From the IMG/VR virus record IMGVR_UViG_2597490083_000002: a stretch of DNA of 57,346 nucleotides; one strand, written 5' to 3'. Shown one piece after another: positions 16,542 to 24,071 of this stretch (positions are counted from its first letter, which is position 1; every line of letters starts with the position of its first letter). The notes beneath the pieces are model-generated. The model saw only the letters and a list, made by a program, of their open reading frames with translations, searched no databases and was not told where the DNA came from. The position numbers and the translations under genes are program-made. This DNA comes from a virus (Duplodnaviria > Heunggongvirae > Uroviricota > Caudoviricetes).

Positions 16542-16613
16542 TGAAGTGGCACACTGAATTTGGCCACCTGAACAGAGGTGATATGCTCACCTCAGAACAA
16601 CACAGGTGCTCCA

Positions 16614-16916
16614 ATGAAAAAAAGAAATTTTAGCGCAGAGTTTAAACGCGAATCCGCTCAACTGGTTGTTGACCAGAAATACACGGTGGCAGATGCCGCC
16701 AAAGCTATGGATGTTGGCCTTTCCACAATGACAAGATGGGTCAAACAACTGCGTGATGAGCGTCAGGGCAAAACACCAAAAGCCTCCCCCATTACCCCGG
16801 AACAAATTGAAATCCGTGAGCTCAGGAAAAAGCTACAACGCATTGAAATGGAGAATGAAATATTAAAAAAGGCTACCGCGCTCTTGATGTCAGACTCCCT
16901 GAACAGTTCTCGATAA
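16614..16916 (+). CDS. IS911 OrfA
   Basis: [21 protein letters not shown]... within ORF 16578..16916. Confidence 0.9.
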
Positions 16917-16942
16917 TCGGGAAACTCAGAGCGCATTATCCT

Positions 16943-17782
16943 GTGGTCACACTCTGCCATGTGTTCGGGGTTCATCGCAGCAGCTACAGATACTGGAAAA
17001 ACCGTCCTGAAAAACCAGACGGCAGACGGGCTGTATTACGCAGTCAGGTACTTGAGCTACATGGCATCAGCCACGGTTCGGCCGGAGCAAGAAGCATCGC
17101 CACAATGGCAACCCGGAGAGGCTACCAGATGGGACGCTGGCTTGCTGGCAGGCTCATGAAAGAGCTGGGGCTGGTCAGCTGTCAGCAGCCGACTCACCGG
17201 TATAAACGTGGTGGTCATGAACATGTTGCTATCCCTAACTACCTTGAAAGGCAGTTCGCCGTGACCGAGCCAAATCAGGTGTGGTGCGGTGATGTGACCT
17301 ATATCTGGACGGGTAAGCGCTGGGCGTACCTCGCCGTTGTTCTCGACCTGTTCGCAAGAAAACCAGTGGGCTGGGCCATGTCGTTCTCGCCGGACAGCAG
17401 GCTCACCATGAAAGCGCTGGAAATGGCATGGGAAACCCGTGGTAAGCCCGGCGGGGTGATGTTCCACAGCGATCAGGGCAGTCATTATACGAGCAGGCAG
17501 TTCCGGCAGTTATTGTGGCGATACCAGATCAGACAGAGTATGAGCCGGCGCGGAAACTGCTGGGATAACAGCCCAATGGAACGCTTCTTCAGGAGTCTGA
17601 AGAACGAATGGATGCCGGTGGTGGGTTACGTAAGCTTCAGCGAGGCAGCTCACGCCATAACGGACTATATCGTTGGATATTACAGTGCACTAAGACCGCA
17701 CGAATATAACGGTGGGTTACCCCCAAACGAATCGGAAAATCGATACTGGAAAAACTCTAACTCGGTGGCCAGTTTTTGTTGA
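16943..17782 (+). CDS. IS911 OrfB
   Basis: 279-aa DDE-domain ORF; identical copy at 22811..23650(-). Confidence 0.9.
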
Positions 17783-17811
17783 CCACTTCAGTGGCGGTAA
17801 GACGGGGAATA

Positions 17812-18233
17812 TGTTTAACCTGATGTTGACCTCTAAAAAGCTGACAAAAACGGCAATTAACGAGGCGCTCCGGAGGATGAAAAAAGCAGGTCTGAACAAG
17901 TCTGAACTTGAGGCTTTTTTGCGGGATATGATTAACGGTAAGCAAAAGAGCTGGCTGGCGCATTGTACTGATGCAGAGGCGTTATGTATTGATCGGGTCA
18001 TAAGTGAGGTGCTGGCAGAGCATCCAGGATTGATTAGCGTCCTTCGGCAACGGTATGAGGGGCGGGGGATGACCAAATGCAAAATGGCTGAACTGCTGAA
18101 TGATGCACACCCGAAATGGAGTTTAAGAACCTGTGAAAGACGCATTGAGCATTGGCTAAAGGTGGCAGAATTTATTTTGTACAAACCAATGGTTATGGCT
18201 TTTGGTATAGAGAAAAAAGTTATTGCTTTTTGA
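17812..18233 (+). CDS. Putative late-gene antiterminator (Q-position protein), possibly 5'-truncated by IS911
   Basis: Sits directly upstream of the same terminator/tRNA arrangement that follows Q at 26880..27260, but the sequence differs from that Q; start taken at first Met after the IS911 junction. Confidence 0.4.
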
Positions 18234-18310
18234 CGTAAAAACTGCTTCAATTCTTGTACGCTTCGCAAAGCTGTACCGCGAGGCGAATAGCAGACATGGA
18301 CATTTGAAAG

Positions 18311-18338
18311 AGCCCGCTTTATGCGGTTTTTTTTATAC
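18311..18338 (+). terminator. Short hairpin plus T8 run downstream of the Q-position gene (tR'-like)
   Basis: gcccgc-ttta-tgcgg followed by tttttttt; weaker stem than the copy at 27347. Confidence 0.4.
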
Positions 18339-20701: not shown

Positions 20702-20976
20702 TATTAGCTCCTTCTGATGCCATTCTATTTCAGGAAGGAGTGTCCGTTAAACTCAGGCTACCTCAGTCAGCGCTGGAACGACGAGAAGCCAGAAACCATT
20801 CAACCACAATCCAGACCATCATCCGCAATCACCGTATCGAAAACTGGCTATGTGTTTTTCGACAGGTGAACCATGAAATCAAAAATCAAATCGCTACTGG
20901 TCGCTGGTTATAACCACGGCTGGTTAAGTATTTCGTTTGTCGATTTCTGGTTTAAAAATCTCAATCTGAGGGAATC

Positions 20977-22801
20977 ATGAGGCCAAGTGAACTTAGCGAC
21001 CTGCTTTGGGCGCAGGTTGACAGGGTGGCTCCGCACCTGTTGCCAAACGGCAAGATAGAGGGGCATGAGTGGGTTGCCGGTAACGTCAACGGTGACAAGG
21101 GAAACAGCCTTAAGGTCAACCTTATCGGCAAGAAAAAATGGGCTGATTTCGCTGAGGGAGACGGCGGTGACATGCTTGATTTGTGGATGGCATGTCGTGG
21201 AATTAACCTGCATCAGGCTATGCAGGAAGCGAAAGCATTTCTCGGTATCAAGGATGACGATCACCATTTCGATGCCAGACGTGAGAAGAAATTCTCCAGA
21301 CCTGATCGTAAGAAAATCGCCCGCTACGTTACCAGAACAGAATCCCATCTTGAGTACCTGCAATCGCGTGGCATATCGCCAGAAGTCGTAAAGCGCTACG
21401 AGGTTGTCAGCGGCAAGGTGTGGAATGGAGAACGAGAACTGGATGCTCTGGTGCTTCCGTACAAACGCGATGGTGAGTTGTTGCAGGTCAAGCGAATCAG
21501 CACTGAGCGCCCGGACGGGAAGAAAGTCATTATGGCAGAAGGTGATTGCGAACCTTGCCTGTTCGGATGGCAGGCTCTGGACGCTGGCGTGAGGGTGGTT
21601 GTGCTTTGCGAAGGCGAAATTGATTGTATGAGCTATGCGCAATACGGCATCTCGGCGTTATCCGTGCCGTTTGGTGGCGGGAAAGGCGCTAAGCAACAGT
21701 GGATTGAGTTTGAGTATCACAACCTCGACAGGTTTGAGGAAATATTCATCTCGATGGACGTTGATGATGTTGGTCGTGAAGCCGCAAGGGAAATCGTAAG
21801 CCGACTCGGTGAACATCGTTGCCGTCTTGTTACTCTGCCGTACAAAGACATCAACGAATGCCTGATGAACGGTGTTACCGAGGATGAAATCTGGCAGTAC
21901 ATCGGCACGGCATCCTACTTCGATCCTGAAGAACTCTACAGTGCGCGAGAGTTTTACCAGGACACTATCAACGCTTTCTACGGCAAGCAGCAGTATCTGT
22001 TTAATCCACCGTGGGAATCTCTGGCAGATAAATTCCAGTTCCGTGAGGCAGAGTTGACGCTGGTCAATGGTGTGCACGGTCACGGAAAGGCATGCCCACT
22101 GAATGAGCCTATTCTTTTAGCTGATGGGACATGGACTACTCACGGGAATGTAAAAATTGGCGATCAGGTGGCGTCAGTAGACGGCAATCCGTCAACTGTC
22201 ACTGGGATATTCCCGCAGGGTGTTAGAGATGTTTACCGAGTCACATTTGAAGATGGTCGTTATGTTGATTGCGCAGGCGATCACCTATGGGAGGTCACTA
22301 GTCGTGGATTCACGAAAGGCGAGAAACGCCGCGTGATAGATACCTTCGGGTTGAAGCGGTTGAGTGAAACGAAGAGGCACAAAAATGGCGTTAGGATTCC
22401 TGAAATAACTGGTGACTTTGGCGACCACTCAGAGCCATTAGCATGGGTTATCGGCTCCCTTCTCGGGGATGGTAGTCTTAGCAATGGGAGCGTGAAGTTT
22501 TCAAACGTCGAGCCATACATGATCGAGCGTATGAAGGCTGAACTGCCTGATTACAACTTCTCTGGAGATGGTAAGGACTGGCTGATATCAACGGCGCGTG
22601 GTCAGGTAAATCCACTCATGGAGACCCTGCGAGGTTATGGACTAATGGGGTGCACAGCAAAAAACAAATTCATCCCTCGTGTGTTTTTTTCCGCAAATAA
22701 ATCAACGCGTATAGGCATGCTGTGTGGTCTGCTTGAAACGGATGGGTATGTCGAGAAGGATGGAACGCTTGTTTTTTCCTCAGCAAGTGAAGAACTGCGC
22801 A
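20977..22801 (+). pseudogene. Phage toprim-type DNA primase / P-loop NTPase carrying an intein-like insertion; 3' end removed by IS911
   Basis: Toprim-like acidic motifs (VVVLCEGEIDCMSY, FISMDVDDVG); Walker-A-like GVHGHGK followed from Cys at 22093 by Hint-like and LAGLIDADG-like motifs; ORF continues into IS911 at 22802. Confidence 0.65.
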
Positions 22802-22810
22802 ATGAAGTGG

Positions 22811-23650
22811 TCAACAAAAACTGGCCACCGAGTTAGAGTTTTTCCAGTATCGATTTTCCGATTCGTTTGGGGGTAACCCACCGTTATATTCGTGCGGTCT
22901 TAGTGCGCTGTAATATCCAACGATATAGTCCGTTATGGCGTGAGCTGCCTCGCTGAAGCTTACGTAACCCACCACCGGCATCCATTCGTTCTTCAGACTC
23001 CTGAAGAAGCGTTCCATTGGGCTGTTATCCCAGCAGTTTCCGCGCCGGCTCATACTCTGTCTGATCTGGTATCGCCACAATAACTGCCGGAACTGCCTGC
23101 TCGTATAATGACTGCCCTGCTCGCTGTGGAACATCACCCCGCCGGGCTTACCACGGGTTTCCCATGCCATTTCCAGCGCTTTCATGGTGAGCCTGCTGTC
23201 CGGCGAGAACGACATGGCCCAGCCCACTGGTTTTCTTGCGAACAGGTCGAGAACAACGGCGAGGTACGCCCAGCGCTTACCCGTCCAGATATAGGTCACA
23301 TCACCGCACCACACCTGATTTGGCTCGGTCACGGCGAACTGCCTTTCAAGGTAGTTAGGGATAGCAACATGTTCATGACCACCACGTTTATACCGGTGAG
23401 TCGGCTGCTGACAGCTGACCAGCCCCAGCTCTTTCATGAGCCTGCCAGCAAGCCAGCGTCCCATCTGGTAGCCTCTCCGGGTTGCCATTGTGGCGATGCT
23501 TCTTGCTCCGGCCGAACCGTGGCTGATGCCATGTAGCTCAAGTACCTGACTGCGTAATACAGCCCGTCTGCCGTCTGGTTTTTCAGGACGGTTTTTCCAG
23601 TATCTGTAGCTGCTGCGATGAACCCCGAACACATGGCAGAGTGTGACCAC
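22811..23650 (-). CDS. IS911 OrfB
   Basis: 279-aa ORF, one substitution relative to copy 1. Confidence 0.9.
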
Positions 23651-23676
23651 AGGATAATGCGCTCTGAGTTTCCCGA

Positions 23677-23979
23677 TTATCGAGAACTGTTCAGGGAGTC
23701 TGACATCAAGAGCGCGGTAGCCTTTTTTAATATTTCATTCTCCATTTCAATGCGTTGTAGCTTTTTCCTGAGCTCACGGATTTCAATTTGTTCCGGGGTA
23801 ATGGGGGAGGCTTTTGGTGTTTTGCCCTGACGCTCATCACGCAGTTGTTTGACCCATCTTGTCATTGTGGAAAGGCCAACATCCATAGCTTTGGCGGCAT
23901 CTGCCACCGTGTATTTCTGGTCAACAACCAGTTGAGCGGATTCGCGTTTAAACTCTGCGCTAAAATTTCTTTTTTTCAT
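23677..23979 (-). CDS. IS911 OrfA
   Basis: [10 protein letters not shown]... within ORF 23677..24015. Confidence 0.9.
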
Positions 23980-24071
23980 TGGAGCACCTGTGTTGTTCTG
24001 AGGTGAGCATATCACCTCTGTTCAGGTGGCCAAATTCAGTGTGCCACTTCAGACATTCTGAGGTGACAGCG

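Follow-up and report, generated by a model that had tools for sequence, protein, structure and literature searches.

The two inverted IS911 copies in the 57,346-nt stretch of DNA analysed here (the window) result from separate events with different partners, namely an inversion at copy 1 and a deletion at copy 2. With high probability, the window represents IS-scrambled prophage remnants within a Shigella flexneri chromosome, in which copy 1 is the end point of an inversion, a recombinant of the left junction of an IS911 insertion in an Rz gene and the right junction of an IS911 insertion in a DUF1133 gene. The partner of copy 1 is a third IS911 copy outside the window, not copy 2. An initial annotation had taken both copies for rearrangement junctions rather than simple insertions, which is borne out by the lack of duplications and by parental or empty states in sister strains. 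Synteny comparison with related strains, proposed there as a check, identified both copies as junctions and located their partners elsewhere; none of the related genomes sampled combined the same flanks with intact duplications at both copies, the arrangement named as evidence to the contrary.

Genomes compared and composition of the window

S. flexneri genomes were accessed by exact-sequence look-up of the chimeric ORF of the primase stump; up to 10 contexts were taken per look-up, and the compared loci comprised 20 kb each. The S. flexneri loci obtained in this way, including that of AE014073.1 (strain 2457T), are collinear with the window at 99.8–99.98% identity. FDAARGOS_944 (locus L006) and CFSAN029787 provided intact reference prophages. 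The Rac-like prophage is designated R, and R coordinates are those of L006; window positions 7075–16541 are the reverse complement of R 11557–19711 (99.3–99.5% identity). The locus labels L061, L068, L070 and L039 refer to CP182555.1, CP007037.1, CP000266.1 (strain 8401) and JANXIZ010000001.1, respectively. Since exact 40-mers of the junctions recurred in many independent complete genomes, e.g. AE014073.1, the junctions are not an assembly artefact. A search of 5,426 complete Escherichia coli genomes for the same junctions yielded none; two E. coli matches at 78% coverage were rejected, as the search tool had joined unrelated pieces. The parts of the window are compiled in Table 1. All constituents that the initial annotation had listed between the two IS911 copies, i.e., a Q-like gene, tRNAs, a holin stump, IS600 and the primase, are present; there are four tRNAs, and the holin stump is a 5' one.

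Table 1. Positions and origin of the parts of the window
Feature	Position	Strand	Remarks
IS600 copy	5779–7042	–	Joins truncated Mu-like transposase gene (4147–5778) to distal end of reversed R late region
Late region of prophage R, reversed	7043–16541	–	Head genes, terminase, 254-aa gene, DedA, Rz/Rz1 3' fragment; ends at breakpoint b
IS2	12787–14117		Simple insertion interrupting R late region, 5-bp duplication
DedA	15695–16207	+	Within reversed R late region
Rz/Rz1 3' fragment	16318–16541	–	
IS911 copy 1	16542–17790	+	1249 bp; IRL on left
Segment M1 of prophage R	17791–19501	+	Native orientation; matches L006 9001–10712
DUF1133 gene without first 112 nt	17791–18233	+	Pfam: profile positions 39–176 of 176
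tRNAs CAT/Arg/Thr/Gly	18423–18732	+	Segment M1
Holin 5' stump	ends at 19501	+	Segment M1
IS600	19502–20765	–	Junction; left flank CAG in R holin, right flank GTC in lambdoid prophage
Lambdoid prophage fragment	20766–22802	+	HTH gene 3' end and primase 5' part
Toprim primase stump, intein-like insert	20977–22802	+	First 608 codons of 968-aa primase
IS911 copy 2	22803–24051	–	1249 bp; inverted relative to copy 1
Downstream prophage genes	24052–29907	+	Collinear with primase fragment in strain JANXIZ01
DnaC-like (292 aa)	24072–24950	+	
DnaB	24947–26338	+	
ninH, Q, holin, lysozyme	within 24052–29907	+	
Second tRNA array	27460–27770		
Rz	cut at 29909		Cut by IS600

Structure and flanks of the two IS911 copies

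Both copies have the tips TGAAGTGG...CCACTTCA, with ends of the type TG..CA and imperfect terminal inverted repeats, IRL and IRR being identical at 24 of the first 36 positions. As is characteristic of IS911 and the IS3 family, they contain an orfA with a helix-turn-helix domain (HTH_Tnp_1 in the domain search) and an orfB with a DDE domain (rve/rve_3) connected by a –1 frameshift; an A6G motif is located at window position 16865, within the orfA-orfB overlap, and RefSeq labels 99%-identical copies as "IS911 family transposase, programmed frameshift". In length, ends, orfA/orfB and the A6G motif, the elements are like IS911, which transposes by the copy-out/paste-in route; the elements themselves are no different from it, and only their flanks are non-parental. 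The two copies differ by 2 nt, at IS positions 932 and 1145 (99.84% identity), and these two SNPs did not separate their histories when used as markers inside IS911. A supposed 1252-nt repeat arm of "100%" identity was discarded, because it contains one mismatch in the three extra bases besides the two mismatches inside the IS. The end of copy 2 had been annotated correctly, whereas its start had been placed at 22802, one base too early.

Simple IS911 insertions in this lineage are accompanied by 3-bp duplications, as observed for GTG (L045, L047, L065 and L067), AAA (L070) and ATC (L021 and L028). Comparison of the 3-bp flanks revealed no target-site duplication at copy 1 (TTT/GTG) or copy 2 (CAA/GAC), in agreement with the initial annotation. 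In other strains, an IS911 with the 3-bp duplication ATC and reciprocal CCC halves in ybdN were observed.

Exchange of flanks at copy 1

The flanks of copy 1, ..CAGCTTT on the left and GTGGCGG.. on the right, derive from a single Rac-like prophage, the former from its Rz gene and the latter from its DUF1133 gene. This accords with the assignment of an Rz/Rz1 fragment on the minus strand to its left, which proved to be the 3' part of Rz/Rz1, and of a Q-position gene to its right, which is the DUF1133 gene, itself truncated and lacking its first 112 nt. Both parental insertions were found in sister strains: L070 (CP000266.1, strain 8401) contains the Rz insertion (..GCGAAA–IS911–AAAGCTG, duplication AAA) together with an intact DUF1133 gene, and L045, L047, L065 and L067 contain the DUF1133 insertion (..TTGGTG–IS911–GTGGCGG, duplication GTG). 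The reciprocal junction, ..TTGGTG–IS911–TTTCGC.., is present in CP182555.1 at positions 881613–882861, 183 kb away and inverted; in this genome and in CP007037.1 (L061 and L068) the sequence reads ..ATATTGGTG–IRL..IRR–TTTCGCATTGGC, followed by R 11559→11340. The half-sites are thus exchanged, in that TTT–IS–GTG at copy 1 pairs with GTG–IS–TTT at the remote copy of CP182555.1. Undoing this exchange restores two simple insertions, both of which are seen in sister strains, and this identifies the event as an inversion. All contacts between IS ends and flanks (b+ to IRL, b– to IRR, a– to IRL, a+ to IRR) fit a crossover of the Rz and DUF1133 copies.

These comparisons demonstrate the exchange of flanks at copy 1. 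In all probability, it began with two ordinary IS911 insertions, in opposite orientations, in one Rac-like prophage, one in Rz (AAA/TTT duplication) and one 2.55 kb upstream in DUF1133 (GTG). A crossover between the two copies swapped their flanks, to give the product present in the window, Rz3'..TTT–IS911–GTG..DUF1133-3', and the reciprocal product DUF1133-5'..GTG–IS911–TTT..Rz5', now 183 kb off and on the other strand. The exchange may have occurred either as a local 2.55-kb flip whose ends were later pulled apart, or as a large inversion.

Copy 1 could alternatively derive from a deletion between direct-repeat IS911 copies at Rz and DUF1133. A suitable configuration exists in CP026792.1, where Rz3'..TTT–IS911 and U..GTG–IS911 are directly repeated at a distance of about 28 kb, separated by int'-ybhC..pgl, and such deletions do occur, as shown by L062, in which the DNA separating the DUF1133 copy from the primase copy has been cleanly deleted. 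However, a deletion would lose the reciprocal junction, which is present in the window-type genomes CP182555.1 and CP007037.1. Because product and reciprocal product occur in the same genome, the deletion model was rejected as very unlikely. It had itself replaced an earlier model of copy 1 as a local duplicative inversion. A 9-bp microhomology of the IS tip with Rz suggested by BLAST was likewise dismissed, since only 6 of the 9 positions match.

IS600 as a third junction

The IS600 within the segment bracketed by the IS911 copies constitutes a third junction. Whereas the window reads ..GGATCAG–IS600, L021 and L028 show ..GACCTG–IS600 with the remainder of the holin gene, and other strains thus carry the second half of the holin insertion (..CCTG–IS600). 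This element probably arose by recombination of an IS600 inserted in the holin gene (duplication CAG) with another IS600 copy.

Deletion at copy 2

The primase stump to the left of copy 2 was confirmed, and its description as intein-bearing is plausible, as the cut lies in a Hint+LAGLIDADG insert. The complete dnaC-like gene annotated to the right is also there (292 aa), but it is preceded by the final 10 bp of an LvrA-like gene. The locus L039 lacks IS911 at this site, and its sequence continues from the primase into the DnaC-like gene without a break. Window position 22802 corresponds to L039 position 3300 and window position 24052 to L039 position 7981; the 4,680 bp absent from the window, which start within the primase gene and end 10 bp short of the stop of the LvrA-like gene, comprise the 3' part of the primase gene, ninB, ninE, a toxin-antitoxin pair, Rha, and the LvrA-like gene. 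The flanks of copy 2 are collinear and co-oriented in L039, the intervening DNA is missing, and there is no duplication, which establishes copy 2 as the scar of a 4,680-bp deletion in the neighbouring lambdoid prophage. Since the flanks are collinear, nothing was inverted at copy 2.

In L047, L037 and L062, an IS911 occupies the same CAA site in the orientation opposite to that of copy 2. A crossover with this copy as the source of copy 2 is therefore excluded, and at least one step in the formation of copy 2 was not plain homologous recombination. Most likely, either two inverted IS911 copies collapsed into one, or a single IS end produced an adjacent deletion. None of the sampled genomes showed the second IS911 insertion at the end of the LvrA-like gene (duplication GAC) that is postulated for such a pair. 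The other route, a single transposase-mediated adjacent deletion in which the end of a resident IS911 attacked the other breakpoint and no second copy was involved, is quite conceivable, if short of probable. It would account for the collinear flanks, the missing 4,680 bp and the lack of a duplication, and L015 offers a parallel, an adjacent deletion that extends into the DnaC-like gene. The CAA boundary, however, consists of the same 3 bp that are used by the differently oriented IS911 in sister strains, and an independent strike on the same CAA would have to be fortuitous if such events are not drawn to IS tips.

Relationship between copies 1 and 2

The initial annotation had suggested an IS-mediated inversion or deletion; one of each did take place, at copy 1 and copy 2, respectively, but not as a single shared event. 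Its implied model, in which the two inverted copies are the ends of one event on the 17.8–22.8 kb segment, is unsupported. That the copies recombined with each other and simply inverted the segment 17,791–22,802 might be suggested by their inverted orientation, their 99.84% identity and the lack of a duplication at either, yet three results make this highly improbable. First, un-inverting the segment does not restore collinearity: it would place Rz next to the primase and DUF1133 next to the end of the LvrA-like gene, neither of which is a natural adjacency, and the half-sites of the two copies (TTT/GTG and CAA/GAC) are not exchanged, as the duplications expected cross-wise from such a recombination fail to match (TTT versus TTG, GTG versus GTC). 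Second, the real partners lie elsewhere, as indicated by the reciprocal junction in CP182555.1 and the empty site in L039. Third, all genomes sampled share one orientation of the 5-kb segment that separates the copies, the flipped form being found in none.

The two inverted copies bracketing 5 kb are also reminiscent of a composite transposon inserted as a unit. We give this next to no credence: neither a matching outer duplication nor a single target locus was found, the outer flanks TTT and GAC being unmatched and stemming from different prophages, and the inner junctions also occur in strains where each of the IS elements is partnered differently.

Relation to known rearrangements

Inversions mediated by IS elements are documented for S. 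flexneri (PMC1550401, Sf8401 versus Sf301; PMC8072062), as are IS-mediated translocations and deletions (PMC1550401; PMC8072062; PMC7373316). They involve the same organism, the same IS families and the same type of event as here, in that dispersed IS copies underwent crossover and prophage remnants suffered IS-associated deletions; the rearrangements reported in these papers are on the genome scale, and the window locus and the bookkeeping of half-sites were not found described in the texts consulted. Events of this kind are an ordinary and well-documented way in which Shigella genomes become scrambled, and the locus leaves the knowledge of IS911 or of Shigella genome plasticity unchanged. 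It illustrates clearly how Shigella prophage remnants are reshuffled by IS copies, each junction being traceable to parental insertions that survive in sister strains. It assists the annotation of pseudogenes (the primase, DUF1133, Rz and holin stumps), and it warns that nearby inverted IS copies need not be partners.

Collapse of inverted IS911 pairs in other strains

Six different flanks abut IS911 at an identical nucleotide in S. flexneri genomes, its left end adjoining them in some strains and its right end in others, which homologous recombination cannot produce. In three precursor/product pairs, an inverted IS911 pair was reduced to a single copy (spacers of 983 bp, 1,734 bp and 5,012 bp); each time, the loss of one copy and the spacer ended precisely at two IS tips pointing the same way. 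In CP007037.1, the 5-kb segment of the window is reduced to one IS. Such tip-precise collapse may be transposase-driven, with IRL synapsed with IRR of the inverted copy, and copy 2 may be a product of it, a reading that we hold only tentatively and consider rather unlikely. If driven by the transposase, collapse would be a pathway not described for IS911; tip-precise collapse is the only element of this locus that might merit experiment. IS911 reportedly has a dual target specificity (Loot 2002, as cited in PMC9333248).

The transposition network of IS30 includes IR-targeting and junctions between distant IS copies (PMC9333248), a possible frame for end points located exactly at the tip of another IS copy. 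IR-targeting by IS30, however, makes IRL-IRR junctions and tandem copies, whereas the collapse in S. flexneri removes one inverted copy and the spacer; IR-targeted insertion as described for IS30 was thus rejected as an explanation of the "flipped" junctions, because the tandem junctions it gives have another geometry. In strain 2457T, an inverted CTT/AAG duplication surrounds a flipped 983-bp segment adjoining copy 1.

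IS911 elements and comparison genomes

Both IS911 copies of the window are 1249 bp long, start with TGAAGTGG and end with CCACTTCA; they contain orfA (HTH_Tnp_1) and orfB (rve), as identified by domain search, with an A6G motif within the orfA/orfB overlap, and differ from each other at positions 932 and 1145. The element itself is a standard IS911. Copy 1 is flanked by TTT/GTG and copy 2 by CAA/GAC, so that a target-site duplication is absent from both; the initial annotation had described these unequal flanks correctly, but placed the start of copy 2 at 22802 instead of 22803. 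The "Q-position gene" it reported to the right of copy 1 is a DUF1133 gene lacking its first 112 nt, and the primase stump to the left of copy 2 is cut inside a Hint/LAGLIDADG insert, so that an intein is plausible. Several strains (loci L012, L014, L018, L022, L041) carry a 2.27-kb group II intron (RVT_1 + GIIM reverse transcriptase) within IS911, at a site corresponding to window positions 17303/17304 in copy 1; in one strain (L032) it lies in copy 2, at the identical IS position.

The chimeric ORF leading from the primase stump into IS911 has exact-sequence matches in many complete genomes, among them AE014073.1 (Shigella flexneri 2a 2457T), which identifies the window as S. flexneri DNA; the closest collinear genome is CP182555.1. 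The IS911 junctions were absent from all complete E. coli genomes searched. For the prophages involved, enteroinvasive-type strains have intact relatives, which served as maps for the window segments. FDAARGOS_944 contains the Rac-like prophage R between ybhA and pgl, with the gene order DUF1367, DUF1364, DUF1133, tRNAs, holin, RrrD, Rz, DedA, terminase, and onward. A lambdoid prophage with a 968-aa Toprim primase resides at att-lambda, adjoining ybhC, and the CFSAN029787 prophage harbors LvrA-like, DnaC-like, and DnaB genes. Protein look-ups with DedA, the DnaC-like protein and the holin stump of the window, and with the neighbouring proteins YbhC and DUF1364, yielded about 60 loci from different strains, in which every IS911 and IS600 end was catalogued with its flank.

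Features of the window
Feature	Position	Orientation	Remarks
dpiA/dcuC/pagP	1-2917	reversed vs K-12	
Mu-like prophage left end	within 1-5778		after dpiA/dcuC/pagP
Repressor-like gene	3255-3764	minus	Mu-like prophage
MuA transposase gene	4147-5778		cut by IS600
IS2	12787-14117		1331 bp; R terminase region; intact 5-bp duplication
IS911 copy 1	16542-17790	opposite to copy 2	repeat detection, sequence
tRNA array 1	18423-18732		CAT, Arg-TCT, Thr-TGT, Gly-TCC
IS600	19502-20765		between the IS911 copies
Primase stump	20977-22802		
IS911 copy 2	22803-24051	opposite to copy 1	repeat detection, sequence
tRNA array 2	27460-27770		same four tRNAs
IS600	29909-32481		split by IS3-family element
IS3-family element	30286-31588		1303 bp; inside IS600
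Lambdoid tail genes, ipaH effector gene	40244-57346		

Copy 1 is an inversion end point

Window segment 7075-16541, broken by IS2, is the reverse complement of R 11557-19711, and 17791-19501 matches R 9001-10712 in forward orientation; at copy 1, two "plus" sides of the same prophage therefore meet head to head. The intact phage has 2.55 kb between the two breakpoints, which lie in DUF1133 and in Rz. Each of the parental insertions survives in sister strains. Strain 8401 (S. flexneri 5b, CP000266.1) has a collinear R with intact DUF1133, and a simple insertion with 3-bp duplication in Rz (..GCGAAA-IS911-AAAGCTG); CP026772.1, UAUS01000007.1, CP130061.1 and others show a simple insertion in DUF1133 (..TTGGTG-IS911-GTGGCGG). 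A third IS911 of CP182555.1 (881613-882861), inverted relative to copy 1 (697609-698857 in that genome), reads ..TTGGTG-IS911-TTTCGCATTGG and continues into the 5' part of Rz; this junction, identical in CP007037.1, is the exact reciprocal of copy 1. The parental copies are mutually inverted in the native phage. Since all pairings of IS ends and flanks are consistent with crossover between these copies, we conclude that an inversion mediated by IS911 has one of its ends at copy 1 and the partner copy outside the window. The exchange may have been local, a 2.55-kb flip whose products were pulled apart afterwards by IS600- and IS66-mediated events, or alternatively one large inversion. Deletion between direct IS911 copies was suggested by CP026792.1, where the two copies lie 28 kb apart in direct orientation; this model was rejected, as the reciprocal junction is still present.

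Copy 2 is a deletion scar

Both flanks of copy 2 have the same orientation. The corresponding IS600-primase fragment of JANXIZ010000001.1 lacks IS911 and extends through the complete 968-aa primase, a small gene, ninB and ninE, and then through a toxin-antitoxin pair, ASH/Rha genes, a 77-aa gene and a 302-aa LvrA-like gene into the DnaC-like gene. Window positions 22802 and 24052, which adjoin the IS, correspond to positions 3300 and 7981 of that locus; hence 4,680 bp are missing from the window, and copy 2 marks a deletion rather than an inversion.

The mechanism is less certain than the deletion itself. Sister strains carry IS911 at the identical CAA site in the opposite orientation (left half-site joined to the left terminal repeat, IRL, in L047; right half-site joined to the right repeat, IRR, in L037 and L062), which rules out copy 2 as a simple crossover product of that IS911.

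Most strains have the 968-aa primase with the Hint+LAGLIDADG insert (1475-4381 in the JANXIZ010000001.1 locus), while that of CP034931.1 (L042, 11587-13467) comprises 626 aa without it; alleles with and without the intein thus both occur in the species.

Interval between the copies and variation among strains

The initial annotation rightly took both copies for rearrangement junctions. Its inversion configuration for the 17.8-22.8 kb segment did not hold: the cross-wise flank matches predicted by recombination between copies 1 and 2 are missing (TTT vs TTG, GTG vs GTC), and none of the sampled loci has the segment flipped. Every complete locus arranged like the window keeps all four inner junctions: the right one of copy 1, both of IS600, and the left one of copy 2. 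A third junction is formed by the IS600 between the copies. On its left lies R holin sequence (..GGATCAG); the matching half, which also carries the CAG, is joined to the other end of an IS600 in CP097828.1 and CP034060.1, and in strain 8401 the holin IS600 is still a simple insertion.

The outer junctions differ among strains. In 2457T another IS911 is present and a 983-bp DedA-Rz segment is flipped, surrounded by an inverted duplication (CTT/AAG); an exchange of copy 1 with a ybdN IS911 (half-sites CCC) has left its two reciprocal products in CP045941.1 and CP054913.1; CP085202.1 shows an additional deletion reaching into the DnaC-like gene; and in CP007037.1 and CP044152.1 the entire interval 17791-24051 is reduced to a single IS911. 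Inversions, translocations and deletions mediated by IS elements have been described as characteristic of S. flexneri genomes (PMC1550401, PMC8072062, PMC7373316); the IS911 junctions, real and explained in detail, are an ordinary case of this known process.

Collapse of inverted IS911 pairs

Six flanks meet either IRL or IRR, depending on the genome, with the joint at an identical nucleotide, a switch that crossover inside the IS cannot produce. Collapse of an inverted IS911 pair to one copy was seen repeatedly, in three precursor/product pairs: CP034060.1 to CP055132.1 (L028/L056), 2457T to CP026788.1 (L017/L033), and the window type to CP007037.1 (L035). Each time, one copy and the spacer are gone, with end points exactly at two like-pointing tips, which share the 8-bp direct repeat TGAAGTGG. 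Transposase acting on ends of two copies could bring this about, as could breakage of the pair, which is prone to form hairpins, with subsequent annealing at microhomologies; copy 2 may be a product of such a collapse. In CP026792.1 (L037, 2040-2048), a 9-bp extra IRL tip, TGAAGTGGC, directly precedes a complete IS911 and resembles a footprint left by an event with its end inside the terminal repeat of another copy.

Other features

IS2 is the one clear simple insertion in its part of the window. Compared with the CFSAN029787 prophage, 2.5 kb (Rz 3' end, ParDE, KilA-N) have been deleted at the IS600 of 29909-32481; the IS3-family element within this IS600 is missing from 2457T and several other strains. 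The two tRNA arrays are 98.5% alike, each located after a different Q-position gene, and their CAT tRNA is annotated as Ile in RefSeq. The region 40244-57346 shares 98.4% identity with the att-lambda prophage of FDAARGOS_944.
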